Origin: Spirochaetia bacterium
Lineage (GTDB): Bacteria; Spirochaetota; Spirochaetia; SZUA-6; Bin103
DNA length: 64,000 nucleotides
Reading direction: 5' to 3'
NCBI GenBank assembly: GCA_965203055.1
Contig: OZ241863.1
Span: 2,185,313 to 2,249,312 of the forward strand
Shown here: in pieces, positions 25,591-45,282 of the stretch
Numbering within the stretch: the stretch's first letter is position 1
Layout of the letters: every line of letters begins with the position of its first letter
Position numbers and translations under genes: made by a program
The notes under the pieces: generated by a model
What the model was told of the DNA's origin: nothing
What the model saw: the letters and a program-made list of their open reading frames with translations, nothing else
The model's database searches: none

Positions 25591-25706
25591 CGCTGCCCGC
25601 AATGTTATCCGGTGTCCCGCCCTTTGACCACCGGCGCACCGCACCGGGCGCATTTCCGAGGCTTGACGCCCCGAGTAGCGCGCGGCTACGGTCGCCGCGG
25701 GTCGCA

Positions 25707-26750: not shown

Positions 26751-26974
26751 GTCCGCCCGGTACCGGACGTCAGGTACCGCACTTGCTTGGACGTTCCGTC
26801 CCGATCCCGAGGGACCGCACCGGCCGCGCCGGCGTCCGCGGCGACCGTGTTCCGTCCCGCGGCGCCATGGCCTGACCCACGGCGGCTGCCGTATCCATCT
26901 CTCGGTGGGCCAAGAAGATAGCGGCGGGCGCCCGGTGTTGGTAACGGCGCGCCGTCGTGGTACACTACGTGTAG

Positions 26975-29392: not shown

Positions 29393-30561
29393 TGGCGCTG
29401 CTATCGATCCATCCGTTTCCCGCTCGCATGGCCCCGGAACTGGCCAGTCGTTCGATTGAAGCCGTGCCGGACGGTGGACTGGTGCTCGATCCGATGTGCG
29501 GCTCCGGCACCGTCGCCCGCGCCGCGGTGGAGGAAGGGCTGCGGTGCGTTGGCACCGATGTCGATCCATTGGCGGTCCTGATGGCAAGGGCATGGACTAC
29601 CCCGGTGGAACCTGAGGAGATTCGGAATGATGCGGAGCGGATCATACGGGAAGCCGGGAAGCTTGAAGATCTAGAGGTCGAACGGACGGCGGATGCGGAG
29701 ACAAGGGAATTCATCTCCTACTGGTTCGCGCCGCGACAGGAGTCGGCGCTGGCGCGCATCGCAACCGTGCTGCGGCGTTGGCAACGTCCGACAAGGGACG
29801 CACTGGCGGTCGCCGTGAGTCGGATCATCGTATCCAAGGAACGGATGGCGTCTCTGGCTCGTGACACCTCTCATAGTCGGCCCCACAAGGTTGCCGACTC
29901 CAATGACTTTGACGTCCCTTCCGGCTTTCTGCGCTCCGCCCGGTACGTGGCCGCACGGCTCGCACCGGATCGAATAACGGGGCAGGCCGATATTCGCCAA
30001 GCCGACGCGCGGCTACTCGACGGGGTCGACGACGCGAGCATCGACCTCGTGCTTACCTCGCCGCCGTACCTCAATGCCATAGACTACCTGCGCGGCCACC
30101 GGCTGGCTCTCGTCTGGTTGGGTCACGAATTGAGACCGCTGAGGGAAATCCGGGCGAACAGCGTCGGAGCGGAGCGCGTGATACCGGCGACCGATACGAA
30201 TCGCGACGTTCGGCGTTTCGTGGGAAATGTCGAATGGTCGAACATTGCTGCTCGGCATCTCGGCTGGATACGGCGTTACGCATCCGACATGGACGCGGTA
30301 CTCCGTCAGATCGTGCGCGTCATCAAGCGGACCGGCCAAGTGGTTCTGGTGCTTGGCAATTCGTTCCTCCGCGGGGCGACCATCGACAACGCGCGGCTCA
30401 TCAAGGAACTTGCCGAAAACGTCGGATTACGTCTCCAGGGCCAACACGTGCGGGAGATCCCTGCTCGGCGACGGTATCTTCCTCCGCCCGGTGTTGGTGA
30501 CGGCTCGCTCGACTCTCGCATGCGCCAGGAGACCGTCCTTACGTTCGCGTCCGATGCATGA
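29392..30561 (+). CDS. Site-specific DNA methyltransferase (amino-MTase, motif I before motif IV: alpha-class-like)
   Basis: Motif I LVLDPMCGSGTVARAA near the N-terminus and motif IV LVLTSPPYLNAIDY about 200 aa later. The start ATG overlaps the GHKL gene stop (TGATG). Confidence 0.75.
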   Translation: MALLSIHPFPARMAPELASRSIEAVPDGGLVLDPMCGSGTVARAAVEEGLRCVGTDVDPLAVLMARAWTTPVEPEEIRNDAERIIREAGKLEDLEVERTADAETREFISYWFAPRQESALARIATVLRRWQRPTRDALAVAVSRIIVSKERMASLARDTSHSRPHKVADSNDFDVPSGFLRSARYVAARLAPDRITGQADIRQADARLLDGVDDASIDLVLTSPPYLNAIDYLRGHRLALVWLGHELRPLREIRANSVGAERVIPATDTNRDVRRFVGNVEWSNIAARHLGWIRRYASDMDAVLRQIVRVIKRTGQVVLVLGNSFLRGATIDNARLIKELAENVGLRLQGQHVREIPARRRYLPPPGVGDGSLDSRMRQETVLTFASDA

Positions 30562-30648
30562 TAGACTACCCCCTCACTGCCCATGGTCAGCGTGCCGCCG
30601 GCGCCACTGCCAAGGTGCAGATGATCTACGTGAACCCGCTCTGCGGAA

Positions 30649-31623
30649 ATGGAGAATATGGACTACTTCAGTGATCGCGAGCGCCCGCCGCCACCACCAA
30701 CGATTACAGAATTTACGAACGCCTCCTGGCGGGGCGTCGCTGCCGCTATCGACACTCGGATTAGAGACGGATCGTTTGGTGCACGTTACCCCGAAATTTG
30801 TCAAGATGGACCATATCCATATGGCACTGATATAGACTCTTTTTGGTGCGCTTTAGCAGGTGATATACCGGAACTCAGTGAACGATGCGAGCGGTTCACA
30901 GAGACCGAACAACCTTCGTTGTTCGCAGCCATGGACTTGATTGAATTCTGCTGGCGTGCCGTAGGCAAACCTCAGAAGACATGGTATCATAAATTCTTTG
31001 ATCACCATCATCTGAAATTCGACGAGGACGCAGGAAAGAGTGAGTTTCGTGAAGATATAAATAGAATATTCCGTCGCAACGGAATGGCATATGAGTTAAC
31101 GACGAATGGAATCGTTGAACGGTTGGTGCCGGAGCAGATTTCGGCGATGGTTCATACGGAATACCGCACGAGTGACAGCGATCTGGACAGGATGCTCGAT
31201 AGTGCTCGTAGAAAATATCTGAGTCCTAACGATGACGAACGCCGTGATTCGCTCCAGTTCTTATGGGACGCATGGGAACGGATCAAAACGATAGACGGTC
31301 CCGACAAGAAATCGGGTGTAAAGAGTCTTCTTGATCAGGCTGCGGGGACGAGTGCATCGAAATTTCGCGCTACTTTGGAAGAGGAGGCAAAGAAATTGAC
31401 GTCGATCGGCAATAGTTTTCAGATACGACACTCGGAGACGAATCAGGAGCGTCTTGACTCCCCGCAGCACGTCGACTATGTCGCCTGCAGGATGTTTTCG
31501 TTCATCTACCTAATTCTTCGGCGTTTTCGTAGTGTTCCGGCGGGTCAATCGTATCATGACAACGGCGATGAAGAAGCCAGCGCTCTCCGCGCGGCTGCAG
31601 CCGATGACGCACTTCCGTTTTGA
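30649..31623 (+). CDS. Hypothetical protein (island gene between the GHKL–MTase pair and Type III mod)
   Basis: 324 aa, non-repetitive composition, lower GC; no motif I can name with confidence (an R-x(n)-H stretch, RRFRSVPAGQSYH, near the C-terminus is only suggestive of a HEPN-like fold). The 3' end overlaps the mod start by 4 nt. Confidence 0.5.
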   Translation: MENMDYFSDRERPPPPPTITEFTNASWRGVAAAIDTRIRDGSFGARYPEICQDGPYPYGTDIDSFWCALAGDIPELSERCERFTETEQPSLFAAMDLIEFCWRAVGKPQKTWYHKFFDHHHLKFDEDAGKSEFREDINRIFRRNGMAYELTTNGIVERLVPEQISAMVHTEYRTSDSDLDRMLDSARRKYLSPNDDERRDSLQFLWDAWERIKTIDGPDKKSGVKSLLDQAAGTSASKFRATLEEEAKKLTSIGNSFQIRHSETNQERLDSPQHVDYVACRMFSFIYLILRRFRSVPAGQSYHDNGDEEASALRAAAADDALPF

Positions 31624-34600
31624 GTATGCGGGACAAGAGAACACCGAAACCGGGGGCCGCCGATAGCGTTAGGTCGATCACGTATCCGGCGAAGCGGAAG
31701 AACATTCCGCCGGCGGGGTTGGAGGCGCAAGGGGTGGTTCGGGAGACGCCGACGGTGCGGTACGACTACAACCCGCATCTGCCGCCGGCGTTGCGCTCCG
31801 CGCCGGACGCCGCGGTCGAGGACCGGCTGCCGGAGTTGCTGGCGGCGGCGCGGCGGCGGGCGCTCTCCGAAGAAGAGGCGGCGCTGCTGGCAGCCGCGCT
31901 GCGCCGGCATGAGCCGTGGCTGGAGTGGAGCGGCAAGCGGGAGCGTCCGTGGTTCGAGGTCGATCCGGTGGCGCTGCACATGCACGAACGGGTCTCCACG
32001 CAGGCGATCCTGCGCGTGCTCAAGCGGCAGGACGCGCAGCGCGACCTGTTCGCCGATCCGCAACTCGACTACGCCCGGGCGGTGCAGTTCTACCGGCACG
32101 ACGTGGATTGGGCGAACCGGATGATCCTCGGCGACTCGCTGCAGGTGATGGCAAGCCTCGCCCGCCGCGAGGACTTGGCCGGCAAGGTGCAGATGATCTA
32201 CGTCGACCCGCCCTACGGGATCAGGTTCGCCTCCAACTTCCAGCCGCAGCTCGGCCAGCGCGACGTCAAGGACCGCCGGCAGGACCTGACCCGCGAGCCG
32301 GAGATGGTCAAGGCGTACCGCGACACCTGGACGCTGGGCGTCCACTCCTACCTGGCCTACCTGCGCGACCGGCTGGCGATGGCGCGCGAGCTGCTCACCG
32401 CCACCGGCAGCATCTTCGTCCAGATCAATGACGAGAATCTTCATCGTGTACGCTCTGTTATGGATGAAATCTACGGAGCGGATAACTTCATCGCGATCAT
32501 AGCATTCAAGAAGACAAGTGGACTGGGGACTTTCGGCGTCGGAAGCGTCTTGGACTTTCTACTCTGGTACGGTAAGGATAAGCAGCAGACAAAGACTAGA
32601 GACCTGCTCGAGGACAAGAATCCTGGCACCTCCGGAAGATTCTACGATCATGTGTTGTTTCCTACAGGGGAACTTAGGCGATTCTCAACATCTGAGAAAG
32701 ATAGCATAGGAGAGGAAGATGGAAAATTGTTACAGGGGAGTGTTCTTTACTCCGAAGGGGCTACGGAAACAGGTAAATTCGAGATCCAGGTAGGACCATA
32801 CAAGTTTCGTCCACCCGCCAATGCCCATTGGAAGACAACTCAAGATGGGATGAATCGTCTCCTCAGCGCCGATCGCGTATTCCTTAAAGGAAAAACCCCT
32901 CGCTATGTCCGTTATCTCGACGATTATCGATGCTATCCACTGACAAACGTCTGGACAGATACGGGATTTGGGGGGTTCGTCGGCGATCAATCAAAGACTT
33001 ACGTGGTTCAAACTTCGTCGTTGATCGTAGCGCGATGCATGTTGATGACTACCGATCCGGGCGATTTGGTGCTCGATCCGACCTGCGGCAGCGGCACGAC
33101 GGCCTACGTCGCCGAGCAGTGGGGGCGGCGCTGGATCACCATCGACACCAGCCGGGTGGCGCTGACGTTGGCCAAGCACCGGCTGATGACCGCCCGGTTC
33201 GACTACTACCGGCTGCGGGCGCTGAGCGCGGAGGACGTGGCGCGCAACCCGAACGGCACCTGGATCGAGGGCACGGACGGCAACGGCGGGCCGAACGGCG
33301 CGCGGCTGACGCTCGATTGCCGGACGGTGCCGCACATAACGCTGCGCAGCATCGCCCGTAACACCTCGCTCGATCCGATCTTCGCCCGCCACGAACCGAT
33401 ACTGGCCCAGGCGCTCGAAGCCCTGAACCGTGCGCTCGCCGCGGTCACCGCCGAGACGCGGCGGAAGCTGGTCGAGAAGTTGATCGCCAAGCACCGCCGC
33501 GACGGCGCCAACGCGGTCACCGATGCCGACGTGCGGCGCTGGCTGCTGCCGGACACGCCGGGCGACCGGCTCCGCCCGGTCGGGGCGCGCCGGCCGCTCA
33601 AGGCGGTCACCGCGCGGCAGGCAGCCCGGTACCGCGACCGGATTCCGGCGCGGGAATGGCGCGCGTGGCAGGCGCCGTTCGACGCCGACCCGGATTGGCC
33701 GCCGCCGCTGCAGGAGGCGCTGGCCGCCTACCGCGCCGCGTGGCGCGCGAAGATGGAGGAGGTCAACGCCGGCATCGCCGCCAACGCCGACGTCGAGGAG
33801 CTGGTCGACCAGCCGGCCGTCGTCAAGGGCACCGTCCGCGTCGCCGGACCGTTCACCATGGAAGGGGTGATCGCGCTGGAGGAAGGGCCGGATTCGCCCA
33901 TCGGCGGCGCGCCGGAGGAGTTGGACGACTTCGGCGCCGAAGACGGCGCCGCGGCGGTCGCCAACGCCGAGGCGCATCTGGACAAGATGATCCGCCTGCT
34001 CAAGGCGAGCGGCGTCCAGTTCCCCGGCAACAAGCACCAGCGCTTCGAGCGGCTCGACCCGATCACCGGGCCGGCGCTGATCCACGCCGAAGGCGAGTGG
34101 CTGAACGGCGCCGGCGCGGCTCGCACCGTGGCGGTCAGCGTCGGCCCGGAGGCCGGCAACGTCACCACGTGGCAGGTCGAGGAGGTGGTGCGCGCCGCCA
34201 ACCGGGCCGGCTACGACGACGTGGTGTTCGCCGGCTTCGGCTTCGACGCCGCGGCGCAGGCCGCCATCGAGCACGCCGCGCATCCCCATCTGCGCCTGCA
34301 CATGGCGCTGATCAGCCCCGACGCGGCCATGGCCGACCTGCTCAAGACCCAGCCCGGCAGCCAGATATTCACCGTGTTCAGCGCCCCGCGCGTGGCCGGC
34401 CCCACCCGCCGGGAGGACGGCGATTACGAAGTCGAGGTAGAAGGAATGGACGTCTACGATCCGGTCTCCAACACCCTCGCCCCCACCGAATCGGCGCGCA
34501 TCGCCGCCTGGTTCCTGGACACCGACTACGACGGGCGCACCTTCTGCATCTGCCAGGCGTTCTTCCCCGACAAGAGCAAGTGGCGCCGGCTGGCCAAGGC

Positions 34601-34781
34601 GCTCGGCAGCGCCGGCGTGGTGGACAAGGCCGCCTTCGACGACCTGAGCGGCCTGCGCAGCCTGCCGTTCGCCCCGCCGCCCGACCGGCGCGTCGGCGAA
34701 CCGTGGCGCATCGCGGTCAAGGTGATCGACCCGCGCGGCAACGAGGGTCTGCGCGTGCTGACCGTCGAGGCCCCGGCATGA
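31620..34781 (+). CDS. mod: Type III restriction-modification methyltransferase (Mod; beta-class N6A/N4C MTase with long C-terminal extension)
   Basis: Motif IV MIYVDPPYGIRF (about residue 195) precedes motif I LVLDPTCGSGTTAYVA (about residue 515): beta-class order as in Type III Mod and pfam N6_N4_Mtase. 1053 aa. The high-GC antisense ORF 32991..34301 is judged spurious. Confidence 0.75.
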   Translation: MSMRDKRTPKPGAADSVRSITYPAKRKNIPPAGLEAQGVVRETPTVRYDYNPHLPPALRSAPDAAVEDRLPELLAAARRRALSEEEAALLAAALRRHEPWLEWSGKRERPWFEVDPVALHMHERVSTQAILRVLKRQDAQRDLFADPQLDYARAVQFYRHDVDWANRMILGDSLQVMASLARREDLAGKVQMIYVDPPYGIRFASNFQPQLGQRDVKDRRQDLTREPEMVKAYRDTWTLGVHSYLAYLRDRLAMARELLTATGSIFVQINDENLHRVRSVMDEIYGADNFIAIIAFKKTSGLGTFGVGSVLDFLLWYGKDKQQTKTRDLLEDKNPGTSGRFYDHVLFPTGELRRFSTSEKDSIGEEDGKLLQGSVLYSEGATETGKFEIQVGPYKFRPPANAHWKTTQDGMNRLLSADRVFLKGKTPRYVRYLDDYRCYPLTNVWTDTGFGGFVGDQSKTYVVQTSSLIVARCMLMTTDPGDLVLDPTCGSGTTAYVAEQWGRRWITIDTSRVALTLAKHRLMTARFDYYRLRALSAEDVARNPNGTWIEGTDGNGGPNGARLTLDCRTVPHITLRSIARNTSLDPIFARHEPILAQALEALNRALAAVTAETRRKLVEKLIAKHRRDGANAVTDADVRRWLLPDTPGDRLRPVGARRPLKAVTARQAARYRDRIPAREWRAWQAPFDADPDWPPPLQEALAAYRAAWRAKMEEVNAGIAANADVEELVDQPAVVKGTVRVAGPFTMEGVIALEEGPDSPIGGAPEELDDFGAEDGAAAVANAEAHLDKMIRLLKASGVQFPGNKHQRFERLDPITGPALIHAEGEWLNGAGAARTVAVSVGPEAGNVTTWQVEEVVRAANRAGYDDVVFAGFGFDAAAQAAIEHAAHPHLRLHMALISPDAAMADLLKTQPGSQIFTVFSAPRVAGPTRREDGDYEVEVEGMDVYDPVSNTLAPTESARIAAWFLDTDYDGRTFCICQAFFPDKSKWRRLAKALGSAGVVDKAAFDDLSGLRSLPFAPPPDRRVGEPWRIAVKVIDPRGNEGLRVLTVEAPA

Positions 34782-35968
34782 TCGACCGCATCGTCATCGA
34801 GAACTTCAAGAGCTTCCGCAAGGTCGATCTCTCGCTCGGCCCGATGAATCTGTTCATCGGCACCAATGCCAGCGGCAAGTCCAACTTCCTCGACGCGCTG
34901 CGCGTGCTGCAGGGGATCGGCAACGGCTTCACCATCGGCGAGATTCTCGACGGCAAACCGAGAAGCGCGACCAGCGAAGTATGGGAAGGGATTCGAGGCG
35001 GCAGCTCACTGACCTGCTTCGCCGGCAGCGATGGCAATGCGACGCTTGAGGTAAGTGGAATCACGTCAGCACGCTGGGAGTACACAATATCGTTCTCGCC
35101 GGCGCACGGACGAGTCACCCGTGAACGTCTTAGGGTGGACGGAGAAGACATTTACGACTCTATTCCGGTTAGCAACAAGAACGAAAATCCTATCCTCTCG
35201 GTACAACACTACGCGGGAACACTAGAAAGGCCGTCGATGATGGAGTTTGACAGCTCCCGGCCGGTGCTCGGACAGCTTGCCAGTAGTTTGTTCGATTTTG
35301 GCGAATTCGCCGCGCGGACTCTCGTACTCTTGGCAAACTCCCAACGGATCGACCCGTCGCCGCCGGTGTTGCAGCAGTATTCGCAAGCCCGTCACGTGCA
35401 ACGTCTTGGGGAGCACGGAGAGAACTTCGCTGCGCTCGTGCGGACGATATGTAAGGATAAGCGAAAAAAGGGCGCCTACCTGGCATGGCTCCAGGAACTT
35501 CGGCCGGACGAGGTGCAAGACGTAGGGACGTTGAGAGGTGCTGTCGGCGAGGCGTTATTCATGATCCGGGAAGGCGGCCGGGTATTCCCCGCGCCGGTGC
35601 TGAGCGACGGCACCCTGCGGTTCGCGGCGATTACCGCCGCGTTCTTTCAGCCGGCAATGCCTAAAGTCATGACGATCGAGGAGATCGAGAACGGCATCCA
35701 CCCCAGTCGCCTGAGGTTGCTCATAGAGCTGCTGCGAAGTCAGACTGAATCGGGCGCAACGCAAGTCTTCGCCACTACGCATTCTCCGACCGTACTCGAA
35801 TGGCTCGAAGAGTCCGAGCACCGGACGACGTTCCTGGCCGCCCGTGACGAGTCCACGGGCGAGTCGACGATCCGACCGGTGATCGACGTGCCCCACTTCA
35901 AGGAGGTGGTGGAGAAGTATCCGTTGGCGGACCTGCTTGCGGAAGGCTGGCTGGAAGCCGTGCTGTGA
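34778..35968 (+). CDS. AAA/ABC-type ATPase of the OLD/AbiLi/AriA-like class (AAA_15/AAA_21-like)
   Basis: From the ATG at 34778 (ATGA overlap with the mod stop): MIDRIVIENFKSFRKVDLSLGPMNLFIGTNASGKSNFLDAL (Walker A), ...VMTIEEIENGIHP (Walker B/D-loop), ...FATTHSP (H-loop). 396 aa. Confidence 0.8.
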   Translation: MIDRIVIENFKSFRKVDLSLGPMNLFIGTNASGKSNFLDALRVLQGIGNGFTIGEILDGKPRSATSEVWEGIRGGSSLTCFAGSDGNATLEVSGITSARWEYTISFSPAHGRVTRERLRVDGEDIYDSIPVSNKNENPILSVQHYAGTLERPSMMEFDSSRPVLGQLASSLFDFGEFAARTLVLLANSQRIDPSPPVLQQYSQARHVQRLGEHGENFAALVRTICKDKRKKGAYLAWLQELRPDEVQDVGTLRGAVGEALFMIREGGRVFPAPVLSDGTLRFAAITAAFFQPAMPKVMTIEEIENGIHPSRLRLLIELLRSQTESGATQVFATTHSPTVLEWLEESEHRTTFLAARDESTGESTIRPVIDVPHFKEVVEKYPLADLLAEGWLEAVL

Positions 35969-36525
35969 AGGTGCTCGTGATCGCGGAAGATCCGGTCCAC
36001 AACGGTCAAGTCCTGAAGCCGCTGGCGCAGGCGCTGCTGGCTGACGCCGGCCGGGAATCGGCTCGGGTCCAGATCATGGGGAACCCAAGGATTCGCGGCT
36101 ACGCGCATGCGCTGCGAGCCATCCGCAACGAGATCGTCGGTCGTTATCGATGGTACGACCTCTGGTTGTTCTTCCCGGATGCCGATCGTGGTAGTCGTGA
36201 TGCGATGGAGCGGCTGGAGGCCGATCTCGCAGCGCAGGGTGTCTCGCTTCTCTGTTGTCCCGCGCAGCCCGAGGTGGAGATATACGCTTGCGCAGCGTTC
36301 CGCGGCGATATGACGGAGACCTGGAACGAAGCGCGAACAAATCCTCGAATGAAGGAAGAAGTATTCCAACCGCTTCTCGATCTGCACGGTGACCAAAGAC
36401 GGCCCGACAGAGGTAGAGGGCTGATGATCAATCAGTCGTTGAGGAATCTTCCGTTGCTGTTTCAGCTGTGCCCGGAACTGAAGTGTCTGCGCGACCGGAT
36501 CGCGGCGCATCTGAGCGAACATTGA
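35965..36525 (+). CDS. Small TOPRIM-like partner protein (RloB/AbiLii/DUF4276-like)
   Basis: 186 aa. The GTG start overlaps the ATPase stop (GTGA). A conserved-Glu motif KVLVIAEDP and a DxD motif LWLFFPDADRG fit the TOPRIM catalytic pattern seen in small partners of OLD-type ATPases. Confidence 0.55.
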   Translation: MKVLVIAEDPVHNGQVLKPLAQALLADAGRESARVQIMGNPRIRGYAHALRAIRNEIVGRYRWYDLWLFFPDADRGSRDAMERLEADLAAQGVSLLCCPAQPEVEIYACAAFRGDMTETWNEARTNPRMKEEVFQPLLDLHGDQRRPDRGRGLMINQSLRNLPLLFQLCPELKCLRDRIAAHLSEH

Positions 36526-39500
36526 GCGCTTCCGATACCGATACCGATACGCAGCTTCCGCTGCAGCCGGTCGAGGAGCCGATCATCTGCTCGCCCTACG
36601 CCGAGCCGGCGGCGCACTGGCTGTACGACACCGGCACCGGCCTGCCGTCGAAGATCGAGGGGCGGCGCGAGGCCGGCTACTGGTTCAAGACCGAGCGGGC
36701 GGGGAGCGCTCAGCAGGCGCTGTTCGCGGAGGAGGAACGGGACGATCTGCCGCTGGTGAACGTGCTGCGCGCCGACGTGCGCCGCTGGCGGCGGGCCGGC
36801 TGGCCCGGCTCGTCGCCGATCACCAAGAAGCTGCTGCGCCACTGGTGGCGCGAGGACCGCTCGCGGCGGCTGTTCTTCTGCCAGCTCGAAGCGGTGGAGA
36901 CCGTCATCTACCTGCGCGAGCTGCTGGCGCGGGGCAGGAAGCCGCGCTGGACGCCGCGGCTCTCGCTGCGCGAGTTCGAGCTGCTCGGCAAGGGCCGCAA
37001 TCCCCGCCCTGAAGAGTGGGTGGCCAAGGTGGCGCAGCCGCCCAAGCTCGCCGACTTCCCGAACAGCAGCGGCGGTCGGCCGATCCCGCGCTACGCCTGC
37101 AAGATGGCGACCGGCAGCGGCAAGACCGTGGTCATGGCGATGCTCGCCGCCTGGAGCTTCTGCAACCGCGGCGCGGCGCCCGCCGACCCGCGCTTCCCGC
37201 GCCGCGCGCTGGTGGTCTGTCCCAACCTCACCATCAAGGAGCGGCTGCAGGTGCTGCGCCCGGCCGCGCCCGGCAACTACTACGAGGAGTTCGACCTGGT
37301 GCCGTCCGCGCTGCGCCCGGAGCTGGCCAAAGGCAGGGTGCTGGTCACCAACTGGCACCGGCTCAGCCCCGACTCCGAGGAGATCCGCGTCGGCACGGTG
37401 GCGGTCGGCCGGATCGGCGAGGAGACCCCGGAGGCGTTCGCCCGCAACCGCCTGGGCGACCTGTACGACGGCGAGCCGCTGCTGGTGCTCAACGACGAAG
37501 GCCACCACGCCTACCGCCCGGCGCCCGCCGCCGACGACCTGCCGGCAACCGCGCGGGCCGAGCGCGAGGCGGCCACGGTGTGGGTGGACGGACTGGACCG
37601 GATCAACGCCGCCTGCGGCATCGACGTCTGCATCGACCTGTCGGCCACGCCGTTCTACCTGCAGGGCAGCGGCTATCCCGAAGGCTCCCCGTTCCCGTGG
37701 ATCGTCAGCGACTTCAGTCTGGTCGACGCCATCGAGTGCGGCATCACGAAAATTCCGCGGCTGCCCGCGGCGGACAACACCGGGCAGCCCGACCCCAAGT
37801 ACTTCCGGCTGTGGGAACACGTCACCCGCGACCTGCGACCGGGCGAACGGTTGACTCGGGGGCGGCCGAAGCCGGAGGTGGTCTACCGCAAGGTCGAAGA
37901 CGCCCTGCTCACCCTCGCCGGCGAATGGAAGGAGCGGTTCGAGCAGGCGCAGGCGGCCGCGCCCGGCCAGGACCGCACCCCGCCGGTGATGATCGTGGTG
38001 TGCGACAACACCGCCATCGCCACCCACTTCCACCGCATGATCTCCGGCGAGGAACCGGACGCGGACCACCCGCAGCAAAAGCGCTACGGCTCCGGCATCA
38101 AGGGATTCCCCGAGCTGTGGAACGCCGCCGGCGGCCAGTACACGCTGCGCATCGACTCCAAGCTGCTCGAAGCCGCCGAGAGCGGCGATCCCGCGGCCAC
38201 CAGGAAGGACGCCGCTGAGGAGTTGCGCCGCATCGTCGCGACCATCGGCCGGCCCGGCGCGCCCGGGGCGCGCATCCGCTGCGTAATCAGCGTGAACATG
38301 CTCAGCGAAGGGTGGGACGCCAACAACGTGACCCACATCCTGGGGCTGCGCGCGTTTTCGAGTCAGTTGCTGTGCGAGCAGGTGGTCGGCCGCGGCCTGC
38401 GCCGCATGGACTACACGCCGGACCCGGAGACCGGCCTGCTCACCGCGGAGTACGTCGACATCTTCGGCGTGCCGTTCTCGCTGATCCCGTTCAAGGGCCG
38501 CGCGCCGGGCGCGCCGGCGCCGGCGGACGATTCGGCCCCCAAGCATGAGGTGACCGCGCTCCCGGAGCGGCAGGCGTTCGAGATTCGCTTCCCGGTGGTG
38601 GAAGGCTACGTCATCTCGCTGGAGCGCCACCGCGTCACCTGCGACGTCGCCCAGGTGGAGCGCACGGCGCTCGATCCGGCGAGCGTGCCGGTCGACACCT
38701 TCGTGCGGCCGCAGGTCGGCTACAAGGTCGGCGCGCCGGGCCACTACGGCGGCTTCGGATTCGAGTCCGTCGACCGGCAGCAGTACTACGCCGCGCACCA
38801 TCCGCAGACGATCGCCTTCGAGATCGCCCGCGACGTGGTGCGCCAGCTCACCGACGCGGCGGACGGCGGCAACGGCGCAGCCAACGGCAACGGCGCGGCC
38901 CGGCAGGTCGCGCGCCACGCGCTGTTCCCGCAGGCGCTGCGGATCGTGCAGGCGTATCTCCGGGAGCGCGTTGACCTGCGCGGCTGCCACCCGTGCGAGA
39001 TCGGCCTGCAGACCTACGCCGAACGGATCGCCGCGCTGCTGGCCGCCGCGATCCGGCCGCACGACTCCCAAGGGGAACGGCCGCCGCTACCGCGCTTGAA
39101 CCGCTACCAGCCGCTCGGCAGCACCGCGCGGGTCCGCTTCAAGACCGCGCGCCCGGTGCAGGCGACGCAGGCCAGCCACCTCAATTACGTGGCCTGCGAC
39201 ACCGGCAGTTGGGAGCAGGCCGCGGCGGTCCGGCTCGAACGGCTGGCCGGGCAGGGCATCGTCGAGTGCTACGCGCGCAACGACCACCTGGAGTTCACCA
39301 TCCCCTACCAGCACTACGGCGACGGCGAACCGCGCGCCTACGAGCCCGACTTCATCGTGCGGCTGACCAACGGCCTCCACGTGGTGCTGGAGATCAAGGG
39401 CCAGTCCCGCGCGGACACCGACGCCAAGCACGAAGCGGCCAAGCGCTGGGTGCGCGCCGTCAATCACTGGCGCCGACTCGGCGAGTGGCGCTTCCTGGTA

Positions 39501-39554
39501 TGCCGCGACCCGCAGACCCTCGGCCAGCACCTGACGGCAGTTCATTCACGGTAG
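36468..39554 (+). CDS. res: Type III restriction endonuclease Res subunit (SF2 helicase + C-terminal PD-(D/E)xK nuclease)
   Basis: Helicase motif I CKMATGSGKTVVMAM, motif II LVLNDEGHHAY, motif VI EQVVGRGLRRMDY; C-terminal nuclease motif ...YEPDFIVRLTNGLHVVLEIKGQ... . The start is ambiguous: the ATG at 36468 would overlap the TOPRIM gene by 58 nt; a TTG at 36521 (LSASDTDTDT...) would overlap by only 5 nt. Confidence 0.8.
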   Translation: MPGTEVSARPDRGASERTLSASDTDTDTQLPLQPVEEPIICSPYAEPAAHWLYDTGTGLPSKIEGRREAGYWFKTERAGSAQQALFAEEERDDLPLVNVLRADVRRWRRAGWPGSSPITKKLLRHWWREDRSRRLFFCQLEAVETVIYLRELLARGRKPRWTPRLSLREFELLGKGRNPRPEEWVAKVAQPPKLADFPNSSGGRPIPRYACKMATGSGKTVVMAMLAAWSFCNRGAAPADPRFPRRALVVCPNLTIKERLQVLRPAAPGNYYEEFDLVPSALRPELAKGRVLVTNWHRLSPDSEEIRVGTVAVGRIGEETPEAFARNRLGDLYDGEPLLVLNDEGHHAYRPAPAADDLPATARAEREAATVWVDGLDRINAACGIDVCIDLSATPFYLQGSGYPEGSPFPWIVSDFSLVDAIECGITKIPRLPAADNTGQPDPKYFRLWEHVTRDLRPGERLTRGRPKPEVVYRKVEDALLTLAGEWKERFEQAQAAAPGQDRTPPVMIVVCDNTAIATHFHRMISGEEPDADHPQQKRYGSGIKGFPELWNAAGGQYTLRIDSKLLEAAESGDPAATRKDAAEELRRIVATIGRPGAPGARIRCVISVNMLSEGWDANNVTHILGLRAFSSQLLCEQVVGRGLRRMDYTPDPETGLLTAEYVDIFGVPFSLIPFKGRAPGAPAPADDSAPKHEVTALPERQAFEIRFPVVEGYVISLERHRVTCDVAQVERTALDPASVPVDTFVRPQVGYKVGAPGHYGGFGFESVDRQQYYAAHHPQTIAFEIARDVVRQLTDAADGGNGAANGNGAARQVARHALFPQALRIVQAYLRERVDLRGCHPCEIGLQTYAERIAALLAAAIRPHDSQGERPPLPRLNRYQPLGSTARVRFKTARPVQATQASHLNYVACDTGSWEQAAAVRLERLAGQGIVECYARNDHLEFTIPYQHYGDGEPRAYEPDFIVRLTNGLHVVLEIKGQSRADTDAKHEAAKRWVRAVNHWRRLGEWRFLVCRDPQTLGQHLTAVHSR

Positions 39555-40196
39555 AAGACGCGCCTGAACCACGCCACGAATGCCAAGGCCGCGGCGCTGT
39601 CGTGGCCGAAGTACTTGGCTCGAATGGCCGTGCCATAGGGCACCCCGGGTCTCTCTTGCCAGGCGAGCCACGCGTGCAGGACGGCCTTGCGCCGTGCGCT
39701 GTCGGGAAAGCGTGCGCCTCGCTCCTGCGCATGTTGGGTCGAGGTATCCGCGAGCGGCAGCAGCGGGTCCTTACTCTCGACGAGGTCGCGCAAGAACTCC
39801 TCCAAGGCGCCCGACCGCTGGTTGTCCGGCATCAACCAGACGCCTACGCGCGCCTGCACCAAGCCCGCATCGCCGGCCTTCCGGGGGAATCTCGTCTGGC
39901 AGCGTCACGCCGACTGGTTTGAGTCGGCCACAAACGGCACTCCATCGATCTCCCGGGACCTCGTCGGCATCCAGTACGAACCCTATCGATCGACCGGTAC
40001 TGGCATTCACATCGGTCTGCATCCCTGCAAGCAGCCGATCTGCTCCGCCGGACGGATCCTCTTCATCACCACGGGCGTGTTTGATGCGGACCGGGATGCT
40101 CTCGCAGTCGACGCCGTGCCTCAACAGCAGATGAACGATGGCGTGAGTATCGTCATTGCCTTCGACGCGGAGGATAGACGGCTCGATTTGGGGCAC
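39542..40196 (-). pseudogene. Second TOPRIM-like partner gene, apparently frameshifted (ORFs 39771..40196 and 39542..39862 in different frames)
   Basis: The upstream ORF has ...ILRVEGNDDTHAIVHLL... (Glu) and ...SIGFVLDADEVPGD... (DxD). The two ORFs overlap by 92 nt in different frames and together are about 218 codons, the size of a single DUF4276/RloB-like protein. Either a genuine frameshift or an indel error. Confidence 0.45.
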
Positions 40197-40199
40197 CGG

Positions 40200-41282
40200 T
40201 CAGCGGAGCTCGATCTCTTGGTCGCCGGCTATTGCGATCTCTTCGCCGGCGAAGCACACGGCGCGCTCCAGCGACGGGTGCACTTTCTGTATGGAGACTT
40301 CCCCGGCGAGATCAGGCCGCGACTTCACCAGCGACCCGAGCCCTCGAATGGAGTCATAGCTGTGCGTCGTCGCGAAAACCTGCACGTCGGACTCTTTCGC
40401 CACTTGGATGAGAAGCCGCCACACGTCTTCCATGACGGTCCAGTGCAGGCCGGCATCGATCTCGTCGATCAGCAGGAATCCATGGTTCGCTCCGTGCAGG
40501 GCAAGCCGCAACGCGAGCAAGCGCCGCAAACCGTCTCCGTAACTGCCGATCGGCATCCGCCGGCCTCCTTCACGGCGTCCCACCAGGATCGTTTTGCCCC
40601 TCGTTCTGTCCCCCGTCAGGAAATAGATCGAGGCGATCTCCGGCACGAGGAGCTGCATGTCCCGCGCGATTTCGTCCTCGCGTCCCTCGGCAATCACTTC
40701 GTCCCATGCGTCGCTCATCCTGGCATCCACCAGAGAACCCATATCCAGAAAGCGGACCGGAGGTTCGGAGGAGCCGTTGCGCCGGTATCTCGGCCAGAGC
40801 TGATACAAGAGCGTACCTTCCTTGTCCACCGGCAACACGGTCGATCTCTCGGTCCCGGTGGCGATGCGCAGGCCAAATTCCGGATCGGTCTCGTCTTCTA
40901 CATCAAGCGCACGCTGCCGCGTTCGACTTCTCATTAGGTCCCAGCGTTCGGCATCTTCCCCGACGTCATCAAGCGAAAGAATCGTCGCTGATATATCGTG
41001 CTGCTCCGACTTCAACACGAAACGAGTTCCGGGTTGGCACACATGGCCGGAGAACAGATGGGAGATGTCCACTCCATACCGCAACGAGCCAGTTTCGCGC
41101 CGCCGCCGGGCGACCTCTGCGAAGGCTGAGGGCCGGCCGTTGGAGACGAGCAGCTCGACCGCTTCGAGGACGGTCGTCTTGCCGCAGTTGTTCTTGCCGA
41201 CGATCAGGTTCACCCTCGTCAAGTCAGTCAGCCGATAGGAATCGAAGCCGCGGAATCCGCGCAGCTCAAGCGTCTTCATCAT
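40200..41282 (-). CDS. Second AAA/ABC-type ATPase of the OLD/AbiLi-like class
   Basis: From the ATG at 41282 (MMKTLELRGFRGFDSYRLTDLTRVNLIVGKNNCGKTTVLEAV, Walker A), ...GFLLIDEIDAGLH (Walker B), ...VFATTHS (H-loop). The ORF's 5' extension to 41411 would overlap the DinB-like gene and is low-complexity. Confidence 0.75.
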   Translation of the reverse strand: MMKTLELRGFRGFDSYRLTDLTRVNLIVGKNNCGKTTVLEAVELLVSNGRPSAFAEVARRRRETGSLRYGVDISHLFSGHVCQPGTRFVLKSEQHDISATILSLDDVGEDAERWDLMRSRTRQRALDVEDETDPEFGLRIATGTERSTVLPVDKEGTLLYQLWPRYRRNGSSEPPVRFLDMGSLVDARMSDAWDEVIAEGREDEIARDMQLLVPEIASIYFLTGDRTRGKTILVGRREGGRRMPIGSYGDGLRRLLALRLALHGANHGFLLIDEIDAGLHWTVMEDVWRLLIQVAKESDVQVFATTHSYDSIRGLGSLVKSRPDLAGEVSIQKVHPSLERAVCFAGEEIAIAGDQEIELR

Positions 41283-41779
41283 CAGGCGCGGGCGACCCAC
41301 GCTACGCCGGTGCCGGTGGTTTGGCGGATGCGTTCGCTGAGCTGGCCGGTGTGGTGCTGGAGATGGCGCAGATTGTAGGCCAGCCGCTCCACCGGGCCGA
41401 ACGGCAGCCACGAGAAGCCCGACTCGGCGCCCAGGTCCAGCGCCGCGATCTGCCGGCGCGCGTGGCCGCGGCAGAACTCCAGGAACTCCAGGATATTCTC
41501 CCGCGTATAGGCGGCCGCCTCCTTACCGAGATCCTCGGCGCCGTCGCGGTGTCCGCTCCAGGGGCGGTGCTCCGCTACGGTCCGAAACAGGTAGAGATGC
41601 GCGTAGAACAGGGCACGGTAGGCGATGTGCCAGAACCGGTTGACCTGCTCGGCGCTGTCCCAGGCGTCATCCGGGCACGCCCGCACCGCCGCCTCCAGCA
41701 TGTTCAGGCCGGCCCGGAATTGGGCATCGAACGCGGTACGAATGGAATCTTCTGCTGCCACGGTTCGATGGTAGGCCAC
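41282..41779 (-). CDS. DinB_2/DinB-YfiT-like family protein (copy 1)
   Basis: ...FRAGLNMLEAAVRACPDDAWDSAEQVNRFWHIAYRALFYAHLYLF...HRDGAEDLGKEAAAYTRENILEFLEFCRGHARRQIAALDL...LAYNLRHLQHHTGQLSE... has the His-rich four-helix pattern of the DinB_2 family. The start is uncertain (GTG at 41779 or ATG at about 41702). Confidence 0.55.
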   Translation of the reverse strand: MAYHRTVAAEDSIRTAFDAQFRAGLNMLEAAVRACPDDAWDSAEQVNRFWHIAYRALFYAHLYLFRTVAEHRPWSGHRDGAEDLGKEAAAYTRENILEFLEFCRGHARRQIAALDLGAESGFSWLPFGPVERLAYNLRHLQHHTGQLSERIRQTTGTGVAWVARA

Positions 41780-41857
41780 AACGGGGGTACTATCAACAGC
41801 GAACCGATGGACGCCGCCAGCGCCAGCCTGCCGATCAACCTTGCCAACCTGCTCCAC
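41297..41857. repeat. Direct repeat copy 1 (about 561 bp, about 97% identical to 43649..44210)
   Basis: Manual alignment of the two stretches shows only scattered single-base differences. Both copies carry the DinB_2-like gene. Confidence 0.8.
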
Positions 41858-41949
41858 GGCCGCGGTGTCGAGTCGGTATCGCTCGGCGCCCGCAGCCGAC
41901 GACCTGCCGGCGGCCACGCGGACCGGGCGCGAGGCGGCCACGGAGCAGG

Positions 41950-43308
41950 TCAGTAGAGGCGGTCGGATACGAACGGCGTGTTGTCTCGAGCGATGCGGCC
42001 CTTGTTCACCAGCAGAGTCCGAATCGCCAGCGGCGAAACCTGAAAGTGCTCGGCGACCTCCGTCTGTCTTTCCTCCGAAATGTCGATGTCCAACATGTCG
42101 TCCACCGCATCGTATGGACACAACAGCTCGGCCGCAAACGCACGCTGCGCCTTCTGGCGGTAGCTGTGCGCCCGGGTCGCGGGCAAGAGACGTTCAACGC
42201 CGTCGACCAGCCGATCGCCGATCAACCGAGCGAGATCGAAGCGGCGGCCGGTCTCCCACTTCGGCCTGAGCGCCAAGCGCGACCGATTGCCGTCGCCGGC
42301 GATGAAAAATGACAGTTCGTCGGAGCACACCGAGATATTCTCGATGGCGCTCATGGTCGTTCCCGCAAGGTCTGCAAGGCGGGCGTTGCAGACAGGATCG
42401 GTGCCGAGATTCTCTTGACGGCGGATCGCGCGAGCAGCGTCTTCTCCGGTCTGCCAGGCCGGGTTCTCGGCCCACTCCCGGTTCTCGAAATTCAACCGAA
42501 CCGCGGCGCCGGCATTCGCATCGAAACCGCGATCGATCGAAATTTGCCGGAGCGCGGAAGCGGACGCCACGTTTGCCCCCCTGTCAAGATGGGCGGCATG
42601 GGCAGCCAACTCTTCCACCGCATTGTCACCTATTTCTTTCGCATCGTCGAGATAGCTGCTGATGGTCCGTTCGTCGATCTCGTCCGGGTCAAAGCCAAGC
42701 CGCGCTTCCAGCCGACGAAAGCGGGTGCTGTCAGGATCTGTGCGCTCCGTCCGGAGATCGTTCCAGAGTCGATGAAGATTGGTATCGTGGACGTTGGCGT
42801 TGTCGAGAATCCCCAGAACCTGACGGGCGAACCGGTCGATTTCCGCTTCCAGGTCACCGGCTGGGACGACCTCCATCCTCGCGGCTCCCAAATACCGAAA
42901 CGGCACCGCCTTGAGTTCTTGCGAAGGTTCGGCGATCACGGCGCATCGAAACCCGTCCGAAGAAATCACGACATTAGGCCACACGTAGCCTTCGCCAATC
43001 GTGGCGGTACGGTGCGCCGAGTCCCAGCGACGGAGGACGTCCCGGCCATGTTTTCCCGGAGGCCCCGGAGGACCAGGTTCCCACCGCAGGCGCCACCAGT
43101 TCCAGATCAGCCATTCGGCGAAGTGGTAGCCGGAAACCCTCGGTCCTGTGGCGTATCCTTGGACATGATCATCGAATCCCTCGGTCATGAGCCGGCCGTT
43201 CACGGTGATCTCAAGCAGACCGAACCCTGCTCTTTCTTCTTCTTGTCCGTGATCGAGCGGTTGCGGGTCGAGGCGAAAAGTCACGGTGTCCTGCTTCTGG
43301 CGAGCCAC
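41950..43308 (-). CDS. Hypothetical protein with ImmA/IrrE-like C-terminal segment (no HExxH found)
   Basis: 452 aa, non-repetitive. The C-terminus ...RAFAAELLCPYDAVDDML...VSPLAIRTLLVNKGRI resembles the conserved tail of the ImmA/IrrE (COG2856) family, but no HExxH zinc motif is visible upstream. The N-terminal 350 aa is unrecognised. Confidence 0.5.
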   Translation of the reverse strand: MARQKQDTVTFRLDPQPLDHGQEEERAGFGLLEITVNGRLMTEGFDDHVQGYATGPRVSGYHFAEWLIWNWWRLRWEPGPPGPPGKHGRDVLRRWDSAHRTATIGEGYVWPNVVISSDGFRCAVIAEPSQELKAVPFRYLGAARMEVVPAGDLEAEIDRFARQVLGILDNANVHDTNLHRLWNDLRTERTDPDSTRFRRLEARLGFDPDEIDERTISSYLDDAKEIGDNAVEELAAHAAHLDRGANVASASALRQISIDRGFDANAGAAVRLNFENREWAENPAWQTGEDAARAIRRQENLGTDPVCNARLADLAGTTMSAIENISVCSDELSFFIAGDGNRSRLALRPKWETGRRFDLARLIGDRLVDGVERLLPATRAHSYRQKAQRAFAAELLCPYDAVDDMLDIDISEERQTEVAEHFQVSPLAIRTLLVNKGRIARDNTPFVSDRLY

Positions 43309-43652
43309 TCTCGAATCACCTCTTCACGCATTGCCCTGTCGTCCACACCCAGTCGATACCCGTGATAGCTTCGTCCTTCGTGCCCCAGTTTCGCCTCGTA
43401 AGGCTCTCCGTCCTGATCTACTGACCAGACATATTTCGGGTAACCACTCATGCGATACGTGCTCACCATTCCAAGCCTCAGACCATCGATGAGGAGCCTC
43501 TTAGCTTCGTCCCTTCTGATCACCCGCTTACTGTCGCACAGTGATTTGTGTGGTCGTGGACTGGGCGGACCGTGGAATCCATAGTCGGCGGGTATCGTTT
43601 CGGCATTCGCAGCCTCCTGACGCGGGGGCCGGATCAGTCGGGGCCGAGCCAC
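43281..43652 (-). CDS. Small hypothetical protein upstream of, and overlapping, the 452-aa gene
   Basis: 123 aa. ...MVSTYRMSGYPKYVWSVDQDGEPYEAKLGHEGRSYHGYRLGVDDRAMREEVIREWL... . No family recognised. The 3' end overlaps the next gene by 28 nt. The start is uncertain (the 5' end overlaps the DinB copy-2 stop region; an internal ATG at about 43469 is possible). Confidence 0.4.
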   Translation of the reverse strand: MARPRLIRPPRQEAANAETIPADYGFHGPPSPRPHKSLCDSKRVIRRDEAKRLLIDGLRLGMVSTYRMSGYPKYVWSVDQDGEPYEAKLGHEGRSYHGYRLGVDDRAMREEVIREWLARSRTP

Positions 43653-44131
43653 GGTACGCCGGTGCCGGTGGTTTGGCGGATGCGTTCGCTGAGCTGGCCG
43701 GTGTGGTGCTGGAGATGGCGCAGATTGTAGGCCAGCCGCTCCACCGGGCCGAACGGCAGCCAGGAGAAGCCCGACTCGGCGTCCAGGTCCAGCGCCGCGA
43801 TCTGCCGGCGCGCGTGGCCGCGGCAGAACGCCAGGAACTCCAGGATATTCTCCCGCGTATAGAGGGCCGCCTCCTTACCGAGATCCTCGGCGCCGTCGCG
43901 GTGTCCGCTCCAGGGGCGGTGCTCCGCTACGGTCCGGAACAGGTAGAGATGCACGTAGAACAGGGTGTGGTAGGCGATGTGCCAGAACCGGTTGACCTGC
44001 TCGGCGCTGTCCCAGGCGTCGTCCGGGCACGCCCGCACCGCCGCTTCCAGCATGTTCAGGCCGGCCCGAAATTGGGCATCGAACGCGGTACGAATGGAAT
44101 CTTCTGCTGCCACGCTTCGATGGTAGGCCAC
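43634..44131 (-). CDS. DinB_2/DinB-YfiT-like family protein (copy 2)
   Basis: Near-identical to copy 1 (...HIAYHTLFYVHLYLF...EAALYTREN...AFCRGH...DLDAESG...). The ORF's extension to 44572 is antisense to the HATPase_c_4 fragment and judged artefactual. Confidence 0.55.
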   Translation of the reverse strand: MAYHRSVAAEDSIRTAFDAQFRAGLNMLEAAVRACPDDAWDSAEQVNRFWHIAYHTLFYVHLYLFRTVAEHRPWSGHRDGAEDLGKEAALYTRENILEFLAFCRGHARRQIAALDLDAESGFSWLPFGPVERLAYNLRHLQHHTGQLSERIRQTTGTGVPWLGPD

Positions 44132-44210
44132 AACGGGGGTACTATCAACAGCGAGCCCATGGACGCCGCCAGCGCCAGCCTGCCGATCGACCTTGCCAAC
44201 CTGCTCCACG
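43649..44210. repeat. Direct repeat copy 2 (about 561 bp)
   Basis: See copy 1. Confidence 0.8.
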
Positions 44211-44212
44211 CG

Positions 44213-45248
44213 CGCGTGCCGTGGGACGACCGCCGGGCGCTGCAGGGGAGCCTCGCCGACCTGCGCGAAATGACGGTACGGGAGCACCTGCACGAGATCG
44301 GCAGCGGCCTGATCGCGGAGTCCGATGCAGCGGAGATCTACCGTCGCATGGGGATCACCATGCGGGTCAACGACCACGACGTGCCGCGCCACGTCGGGCT
44401 GCTGTTCTTCGCCGCCGAGCCGACCCGCTGGTTTCGCGGCGCCTGGATCGACTGCGCGCTGTTCGCCGCCGGCGGCAGCGGTGACGTCCAGGACGAGCGG
44501 GAGTTTCGCGGCGCGCTGGCGCAGCAGGCGCGCGACTGCCTGCAGTACCTGTACGCGCGGTCGCCGGTCCACCTGCGCAAGGTGCCGGAACGGATCGAGG
44601 CGCGCCGCTGGCGCGCCTGGCCGGAGACGGCGCTGCGCGAGACTCTGGTGAACGCGCAGCTACGAACCCGACGCGGTGGAGCCTACCAAGGTGTACCTGT
44701 ACCCGGACCGCGTGGAGATCATCAGCTATCCGGGGCCGGCGGCGGGGCTGGAGGCGGAACACTTTGCGCTGCGCTCCCCGTTCCCGATGGTACCGGCGCG
44801 CAACCGCCGCATCGGCGAGTTCTTCAAGGAGCTGGGCCTGGCCGGGGCGCGGCTGACCGGGCTGCGCAAGGTGGCCGCGGCGATGGCCGCCAACGGCTCC
44901 CCTGCGCCGCGTTACGACTTCGACCCGCAGCGCACCTACTTCCGCGCCACGCTGCCGGCGCATGCGGAATACGCCGCGCTGTCCGCGGTGCGAGACGCCG
45001 CCGAGCTGCGCGCCCTGGGCGACGCGGAGGCGGCGCACGCCCTGCTCGAGTCGGCCTGGGAATCGAACCCGGCGTCGGCGGCGCTGGCCGCCGAGCTGAT
45101 CCGGTCGCACGCCGCGCGCGGCGAGCCGGACCGGGCGGAGCGGGTGCTGGACCGCTTCGGGGAGCGCGCGCCGGACGGCGCGCGGCGCGCGCTAGCGGAA
45201 GCGCTGGCCGCGGTCCGCCGCGGGCGCCGGACGCCGCCGCGCGCTTGA
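44213..45248 (+). pseudogene. Truncated and frameshifted AlbA_2/HATPase_c_4-type putative regulator (RecG-C-terminal-like ATP-binding protein)
   Basis: The coding frame begins abruptly at the repeat boundary with no AlbA_2 N-domain, then shifts frame near 44680. The second frame carries the HATPase_c_4 signature ...PARNRRIGEFFKELGLAGARLTGLRKV... . Confidence 0.55.
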
Positions 45249-45282
45249 CGGACGGCGCGCGCCCGCCCACGCTGCAGCCAGC

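Follow-up and report, generated by a model that had tools for sequence, protein, structure and literature searches.

A duplicated DinB segment around a broken two-gene module, possibly a RosmerTA-like toxin–antitoxin pair, in a Spirochaetia defence island

We analysed a stretch of 64,000 nucleotides (nt) from the genome of a Spirochaetia bacterium (contig OZ241863.1, positions 2,185,313 to 2,249,312), in the following called the window, in which a long direct repeat with one gene of the DinB_2 family per copy brackets a cassette of two genes. These two genes belong to a widespread module which may be a toxin–antitoxin (TA) pair, and its presumed toxin gene has been destroyed in this genome. 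The features are collected in Table 1; loci in other genomes carry our own labels (L001 and so on) where they have to be told apart.

Genes and repeats at the locus

Each copy of the direct repeat is 578 nt long and 556 positions are identical (96.2%), which bears out the original prediction, made by a model from the sequence alone, of a 561-bp repeat of about 97% identity with a DinB_2-family gene in each copy. The 22 mismatches are scattered, five of them within the initial 22 nt, where DinB_b ends, and the flanks of the two copies differ from each other. DinB_b, an open reading frame (ORF) of 123 amino acids (aa), an ORF of 452 aa, DinB_a, an ATPase gene and a DUF3226 gene follow each other in this order, all on the minus strand. 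The Pfam model DinB_2 (PF12867) matches DinB_b above its gathering cutoff of 24.8 bits (E 2.5e-6, 28.4 bits) and DinB_a below it (E 0.004, 18 bits), despite 92% identity between the two proteins. Their homologues carry PF12867 and have the NCBI name DinB family protein, and exact-sequence look-ups of both window proteins matched no record. Native DinB genes end in …WVARA or …WVGRG, as does DinB_a, and DinB_b differs from them in this part. Both repeat copies encode a 159-aa protein of the DinB_2 four-helix-bundle kind, but here the gene is duplicated and leads two different defence-type operons.

DinB_b ends 27 nt before the native start codon of the small gene, and the stop codon of DinB_a overlaps the start codon of the ATPase gene (TGATG). 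Between 41200 and 44400 we found only two sigma-70-like promoter matches, one per repeat and none before the small gene. As the promoter-like sites occur only upstream of the DinB copies and the gap between DinB_b and the small gene is so short, each repeat probably supplies a DinB gene and a promoter to the module behind it.

Compared with L001, the corresponding locus of a close relative, the small gene of the window has a frameshifting deletion of 112 nt directly after its fourth codon. The native ATG now yields a 28-aa out-of-frame peptide and the conserved C-terminal 105 codons are out of frame with it. The listed 123-aa ORF (43281-43652, minus strand) uses a GTG near the end of the DinB_b gene, within its coding sequence, as start codon and is devoid of 40 conserved residues at the N-terminus, among them the invariant R11, R12, Y33, H39 and K40; intact homologues have 141-145 aa. 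Because of the missing 112 nt and its start within DinB_b, we regard this ORF as a by-product and not as a gene. Of the two overlapping genes that had been proposed, the 28-nt overlap and the intact 452-aa gene remain, with the 123-aa ORF being a mere remnant of the small gene. In the window the presumed toxin gene is therefore destroyed and an orphan large gene is left, and the nearby AlbA_2 and DUF3226 genes are broken as well. The large gene shows a ratio of nonsynonymous to synonymous substitution rates (dN/dS) of ~0.25 in comparison with L001, which indicates purifying selection. Since the small gene is a pseudogene, toxicity or defence assays with the exact window sequences would test a dead module.

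Table 1. Features of the window and direct repeats around the module in other genomes (for the latter, positions refer to the respective locus).
Feature	Position	Strand	Remark
Direct repeat copy 1	41281..41858		DinB_a, promoter-like region and first codons of the AlbA_2 5' fragment
Direct repeat copy 2	43633..44210		DinB_b, promoter-like region and first 17 codons of the AlbA_2 pseudogene
DinB_a, DinB_2 family, 159 aa	41282..41761	-	GTG start; 3' end …VAWVARA, native type
DinB_b, DinB_2 family, 159 aa	43634..44113	-	3' end …VPWLGPD, derived
Sigma-70-like promoter match TTGATA-17-TACCAT	41768..41796	-	Just upstream of DinB_a; consensus match only
Second, identical copy of the sigma-70-like site	44120-44148	-	Upstream of DinB_b; consensus match only
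Small-gene remnant, presumed toxin	43281..43606	-	Native ribosome-binding site and ATG (43606-43604) kept; 112-nt deletion after codon 4
Large gene, 452 aa, presumed antitoxin or sensor	41950..43308	-	Intact; overlaps the 123-aa ORF by 28 nt
AlbA_2 5' fragment, duplicated, 24 codons (MDAASASLPINLANLLHGRGVESV)	41808..41879	+	Downstream of the large gene; from comparison with relatives
AlbA_2/HATPase_c_4-TPR pseudogene	44160..45248	+	444 nt deleted in frame after codon 17; frameshift by loss of 11 nt near 44655
AbiLi-like AAA_21/AAA_15 ATPase	40200..41282	-	Translationally coupled to DinB_a; PADLOC PDC-M38A E 9e-63, AbiLi E 1e-43
DUF3226 gene, partner of the ATPase	39542..40196	-	Frameshifted over two frames; hits E 6e-33 and 4e-16
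Defence island, ~19.6 kb	25632..45238		Defined against the empty site L171/L172
Island flank, M20/GT2 genes	23466-25631		Match to L171/L172
Island flank, GH116 gene	45239-47972		Match to L171/L172
Direct repeats around the module, L025	5501-5694 / 7354-7547
Direct repeats around the module, L078	5245-5406 / 7352-7513
Direct repeats around the module, L039	4155-4332 / 7604-7781
Direct repeats around the module, L063	5034-5122 / 7646-7735
Direct repeats around the module, L041			352-bp multi-copy array

The two proteins and their family

Homologues of the large protein number more than 1,400 (90% clustering), and the small protein is represented by 679 clusters at 50% identity, nearly all of them proteins of 140-150 aa that stand alone. 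When one genome per species was scanned, 384 module loci were found in many phyla, with members in Spirochaetia, Binatia, Alpha- and Gammaproteobacteria, Nitrospirales, Dehalococcoidia, Latescibacterota, Bryobacterales and Pirellulales. As identity stays at ~45-53% across phyla, the module has probably spread horizontally. Of the 86 loci found via the large gene, 75 have intact copies of both genes side by side in the same order, and among 80 metagenome loci found via the small gene none that has room downstream lacks the large gene. A lack of conservation, which the original prediction had named as the finding that would speak against it, is not what these loci show. No Pfam or NCBIfam name was found for the pair, and no third conserved gene was found beside it; DinB was considered as a third component and rejected, as its linkage to the module is confined to close relatives within this lineage.

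The large protein consists of a conserved W-rich N-terminal region, a helical middle part and a C-terminal pseudo-peptidase followed by a helix-turn-helix. In its AlphaFold2 (AF2) model, which has a predicted local distance difference test score (pLDDT) of 81, the top Foldseek matches of the C-terminal third in the PDB are CapP (7t5t, E 0.05, probability 1.0), IrrE (3dti/3dte, probability 0.90-0.93) and PprI (8slm/8sln), and the last helices match homeodomain-like or helix-turn-helix structures. These E-values are weak but the matches agree with each other, and judging from the model the C-terminal third has an IrrE/ImmA/CapP-like fold. At the position of the HExxH motif the family shows A-R-[LIVM]-[LIV]-[GA]-D in ~115 loci and HExxH in none, with ARLIGD in the window, so that the prediction of an ImmA/IrrE-like tail without the zinc motif was right. 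The third zinc ligand is replaced by Q, lying within YRQKAQRAFAAELLSP, in the family members examined. Because the metal site is absent family-wide, cleavage should not be possible, and since R and D of the replaced zinc site are conserved, a retained but different role of these residues is more plausible than decay. Outside the pseudo-peptidase W66, W69, N70, W72, R73, E77, W95, H99, G105, G107, Y108, W110, P111 and D118 are invariant. At E <= 0.01, 18 of 33 family members are matched by the PADLOC models for RmrA (best 4.7e-8), which cover only the C-terminal ~150 residues, and Peptidase_M78 reaches the same threshold in only three of the 33.

The AF2 model of the small protein (pLDDT 84) shows a basic, partly extended N-terminal half and a C-terminal domain with the order helix-strand-strand-strand-helix, in which W98, E108, K110, Y118, G120 and Y121 are invariant. 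Many of its invariant residues are charged or aromatic (R11, R12, H39, K40, C61, D62, E108, K110, Y118, H119, Y121). Relatives of the small protein on plasmids keep just the C-terminal domain with the motifs YHGYP or YHAYP. A barnase/RNase Sa-like "YHEY" motif and a HicA-like double-stranded-RNA-binding fold were considered for this domain and both ideas were dropped after the hhalign comparison given below. A search of 1.84 billion representatives with the small-protein profile gave only stand-alone members of ~140-150 aa and no informative fusions, and PDB sequence-profile searches with both families yielded nothing meaningful.

That neither ORF belongs to a recognisable family, the ImmA/IrrE-like tail excepted, still applies to the small protein, which also showed no structural match below E 0.1, and not to the large one, which weakly matches RmrA and M78 in sequence and CapP, IrrE and PprI in structure. 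We take the large protein to be a distant relative of RmrA. The pair, proposed as an undescribed TA or defence pair, is indeed a conserved two-gene module without a name and new to annotation as a family, but the kind of system is known.

Plasmids of Massilia, Sphingomonas, Allorhizobium and Rhizobium that are conjugative or mobilizable carry copies of the module, with both genes called hypothetical protein in RefSeq, and distant members (28-31% identity) on an IMG/VR contig have an IS110 transposase on one side and a serine recombinase on the other. On a plasmid of Massilia sp. H6 (L174, NZ_CP103373.1) a 31%-identical module (3678-5242) is located directly downstream of dptH, a gene of DNA phosphorothioation-dependent restriction, and also adjoins a gene for a patatin-like phospholipase. 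In five unrelated genomes the module is bracketed by direct repeats of high identity and 90-350 bp (Table 1). In a sliding control, repeats bracket the module position in five of 65 loci compared with none to three at 23 other virtual positions, and these recurrent long repeats may reflect how the module moves or is amplified. The second repeat copy of L025 is a truncated restart of the module: it consists of the upstream region and 40 small-gene codons, and an IS5-like fragment comes next. In L054 a divergent small-protein paralogue (~30% identity, motif YKGYPL) is found in inverted orientation (5383-5838, minus strand), where it replaces the N-terminal part of the regular small gene, of which only a C-terminal remnant is left (5810-6028). 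Taken as a whole, the module behaves like an ordinary mobile TA cassette that sometimes lands in islands.

A possible toxin–antitoxin pair

From these analogies we infer that the pair is a RosmerTA-like TA or abortive-infection module. The ~145-aa protein would be a toxin with a new fold and the ~450-aa protein would be antitoxin, sensor and autoregulator, which, as all zinc ligands are absent, would neutralise its partner by binding and not by proteolysis. RmrA is the Zn-peptidase antitoxin of RosmerTA, a TA system of phage defence for which a deletion of rmrA was unobtainable and the function of the toxin was left unassigned (10.1101/2022.05.11.491447). Antitoxins with an ImmA domain form a hub that pairs with many unrelated toxins, with the toxin gene being first in 58% (PMC10440598), and COG2856 proteins with a helix-turn-helix occur in operons with RelE and PIN toxins (PMC2701414).

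The module shares with RosmerTA (RmrT/RmrA; Millman et al. 2022) and with the ImmA/Rosmer hub D25 of NetFlax an overlapping operon of two adjacent, co-oriented genes that are conserved as a pair with the small gene first, a large partner with an ImmA/IrrE-type domain that is hit, weakly in the window copy, by the RmrA models in the fraction of members given above, and mobility with an occasional place in defence islands; moreover, the toxins of this hub are diverse and often have no known domain. In contrast to RosmerTA, every module member examined has other residues in place of HExxH and of the third zinc ligand (R-x-x-G-D; Q for E), the helix-turn-helix is C-terminal as in IrrE rather than N-terminal, the large protein has an additional conserved N-terminal region of 280 aa, and the small protein matches no RmrT model. 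On the basis of sequence, the module can be described as RosmerTA-like but is best set outside RosmerTA itself, as it lacks the Zn-peptidase motif and a known RmrT.

A hint at the roles of the two proteins comes from incomplete loci. The small gene is absent or grossly truncated beside an intact large gene in six of 80 genome loci found via the large gene (L008, L015, L053, L011, L038 and L054) and additionally in the window, and the large gene is absent in none of the ~50 loci found via the small gene with room downstream. This asymmetry (Fisher p ~0.04-0.08) would be an independent indication for the small protein being the toxin. The situation in the window resembles orphan antitoxins and decaying TA loci in islands, with the presumed toxin gene broken, its partner intact and neighbouring island genes turned into pseudogenes, differing from them in that the roles of toxin and antitoxin are deduced here.

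Taken together, we give somewhat better than an even chance to the combined view that the locus has the history described in the next section, that the cassette is a RosmerTA-like module of small toxin and large antitoxin, and that its toxin gene has been destroyed in this genome. A broader proposal is that the module represents a new and widespread TA or anti-phage family, occurring in hundreds of lineages from many phyla and mostly in uncultured hosts, with a dead ImmA/IrrE-like pseudo-peptidase (conserved R…G-D) as sensor or antitoxin and a toxin fold unlike solved structures; this we put forward tentatively, as its chances are clearly below even.

Several results weigh against the TA assignment. 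The small protein matched nothing in Pfam, NCBIfam, PHROGs and PADLOC, even when all 54 aligned members were searched at E <= 5, and its intact homologue P0121 from L001 gave nothing at E <= 1 in PADLOC including RmrT. PDB profiles revealed no similarity to a toxin, Foldseek with the model found nothing below E 0.1 in the PDB and BFVD, with a scatter of weak RelE/HigB-like matches at E > 0.5 and a probability of ~0.1, and hhalign of the small-protein profile with RNase Sa, RelE and HicA, a lead test only, gave probabilities of <4%. For the window copy of the large protein the match to Peptidase_M78 (PF06114, residues 383-429, E 0.005, 17.1 bits) is below the cutoff of 22 and that to RmrA of PADLOC (PDLC03949, E 1.6e-4, 18.7 bits) is weak, and a comparison with 50,697 phage records gave no match. 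The large protein is also unusually conserved for an antitoxin, with ~50% identity across phyla, and its conserved N-terminal region could itself be an effector. The orphan asymmetry is modest, and if frameshifts, which might be sequencing errors, are counted as well it becomes 8/80 versus 2/50 with p 0.3. Finally, the 130 nearest neighbours of the module elsewhere are mostly housekeeping genes, with AbiLi, ThsB-like TIR, BrxL, prokaryotic Argonaute (pAgo) and Cas1 among them, so that guilt by association with defence is weak and the association with islands is a minority pattern in other genomes.

The roles might also be reversed, with the 450-aa protein being the effector through its W-rich N-terminal domain and the small basic protein its antitoxin or regulator. 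The many invariant residues of the large protein outside the pseudo-peptidase, together with a conservation that is high for an antitoxin, agree with this, and the basic N-terminus of the small protein (KRxGNNPKRR) could bind nucleic acid. However, intact large genes exist without the small gene in L008, L015, L053 and the window, which should be lethal if the large protein were an unneutralised toxin, no small gene was seen to lack its large partner, and an RmrA-like domain with a helix-turn-helix is typical of antitoxins. We therefore consider reversed roles unlikely.

We rate lower again the possibility that the two genes are no TA system and act in regulation or sensing, as a pair like ImmA/ImmR, IrrE/DdrO or CapP/CapH that controls neighbouring genes or a mobile element. 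In favour of it, CapP, IrrE and PprI, the best structural matches, are all regulators, and the large protein has a helix-turn-helix; the C-terminal third shares with the COG2856/Peptidase_M78 regulators (ImmA-ImmR, IrrE/PprI-DdrO, CapP-CapH) a peptidase-like domain followed by helices of this type. Without a metal site, with all three zinc ligands missing family-wide, a proteolytic switch as in these regulators cannot work, the partner is no repressor of the XRE/helix-turn-helix type, and there is no conserved third gene or regulon neighbour, as the neighbours differ in every genome.

History of the locus and its defence island

Related contigs from metagenome-assembled genomes (MAGs) of Spirochaetia were found via the 452-aa protein and L171/L172 via homologues of DinB. 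L001, which is the same locus as L007 (OZ241907.1, 4.1 Mb), shares with the window a block of 12 kb (window 33250-45285, L001 19580-7457) that is 94-97% identical and contains two DinB genes around the same cassette. L002 and L004 are ~92% identical to the window and have both DinB copies, and L003 and L005 (truncated) contain remnants of both. The assemblies of L001/L007, L002 and L004 derive from other samples and also carry both repeat copies. Because at least four independent assemblies of related Spirochaetia MAGs share this architecture, the duplication has been inherited; it did not arise recently in this genome or through faulty assembly, and it is older than the split from the relatives with ~95% and ~92% identity.

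In L171/L172, which belong to a 7.0-Mb Spirochaetia MAG of a related species, the site is empty and a single DinB gene is located within 1.3 kb between M20/GT2 and GH116 genes. Since the corresponding flanks of the window match those of L171/L172 (88% identity on the M20/GT2 side, 86% on the GH116 side), the region between them can be regarded as an island built around DinB. An island variant, L170, has a single DinB gene, an intact AlbA_2 gene of 515 aa and no cassette; it also holds an HNH gene and an AAA_21 gene, an amidase gene and the same ResIII gene as the window. Both an empty site with a single DinB gene and an island without the cassette but with an intact AlbA_2 gene had been suggested as things to look for, and both exist. 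The single DinB gene of L172 is flanked by an 87-aa ORF similar to Phd/YefM and a 48-aa fragment with a PIN domain (6688-6951 and 7754-7900), which suggests that the DinB locus draws TA or defence DNA in this clade in general.

In this lineage of Spirochaetia the chromosomal DinB gene between M20/GT2 and GH116 has become the centre around which a defence island is built. A segment of ~0.6 kb, comprising DinB, the promoter-like region and 24 codons from the start of the divergent AlbA_2 gene, occurs twice in direct orientation, with the DinB_b segment preceding the two-gene module and the DinB_a segment preceding the AbiLi-like ATPase and DUF3226. The duplication might have originated from recombination between island variants sharing DinB or from the single-crossover integration of a circle that carried the segment. 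The diverged last 22 nt of DinB_b suggest that the duplication is older or that this end stems from a foreign or more distant allele, and that the interior of the repeat was homogenised later, for example by gene conversion. The AlbA_2 gene had been described as truncated exactly at the boundary of repeat 2 and frameshifted. The frameshift, due to a deletion of 11 nt, is real, but in comparison with L001 the gene keeps its ATG (44160, inside repeat 2) and 17 codons and is not truncated at the N-terminus, and the boundary is only apparent because the internal deletion of 444 nt begins there. In repeat 1 the homology to the 5' end of AlbA_2 of the relatives reaches to 41878, and the ancestral repeat was ~20 nt longer.

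The original prediction had assumed that an insertion or duplication delivered the cassette into a defence island, and a recent insertion of a mobile element into a DinB-ATPase operon, with the repeats being the target duplication, would indeed agree with the mobility of the cassette elsewhere and with the repeats around the pair in five other genomes, which exceed the control positions. The same duplication in relatives that are 5-8% diverged contradicts this, and with 578-598 nt including a whole gene it far exceeds the target duplications of transposition. Moreover, no recombinase ORF, transposase, integrase or terminal inverted repeats were found inside the bracket or at its borders, as they would be expected for a transposon, insertion sequence or integron cassette, and the end of DinB_b is far more diverged than the rest of the repeat, which leaves a recent insertion improbable. 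Collapsed or duplicated contig ends, raised by the original prediction as a possible refutation, can practically be dismissed for the repeats, as nothing was found in favour of them, the copies show 22 scattered mismatches and are not flanked by the same sequence, and the architecture recurs in independent assemblies from other samples, and at most the window-specific deletions may be such an artefact.

The surroundings of the 12-kb block differ on both sides, with AlbA_2 abutting Antibiotic_NAT and Peptidase_M19 genes in L001 and GH116 in the window. The empty-site genome shares ~46 nt (45239-45285) with both the window and L001, a hint that the block may have moved from a site adjacent to GH116.

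The predicted setting in a defence island is well supported by the gene content. Beside AlbA_2, the AAA_21 ATPase with its DUF3226 partner corresponds to the AbiLi/AbiLii type, with DUF3226 being split into an N-terminal part (39771-40196) and a C-terminal part (39542-39862, minus strand). L001 does not have the segment corresponding to 39637-40137 of the window, and its ATPase gene is split as well. The other island genes encode a HATPase_c_3 protein, two DNA methylases, an AbiJ_NTD4 protein, an AAA_21 ATPase and a ResIII helicase. Two stretches inside the island, 30600-31400 and 32400-33000, have a low G+C content of 0.47-0.52 (window ~0.69) and surround the AbiJ_NTD4-like gene (30649-31623) and the start of a large methylase ORF. 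ARAGORN reported a 90-nt tRNA-Tyr with the unusual anticodon ATA at 18694-18783 (minus strand), which may be a false positive or an odd tRNA.

In summary, the locus is a clear example of a defence island that is built and decays around one chromosomal gene, DinB, and for which an empty site, island variants and pseudogenised members are available for comparison. As the window copy of the module is broken, an intact relative is needed for experiments, for instance L001 with its small gene at 9591-10028 (protein P0121) and its large gene at 10001-11350. If the module works as proposed, a large unnamed family would join the network of RosmerTA and ImmA-domain antitoxins and the small protein would be a toxin without a recognisable fold. 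The module would then also be a natural test of the need for peptidase activity, which has been lost in every member although the domain is strongly conserved, and the ImmA-domain antitoxin hub could work without proteolysis.

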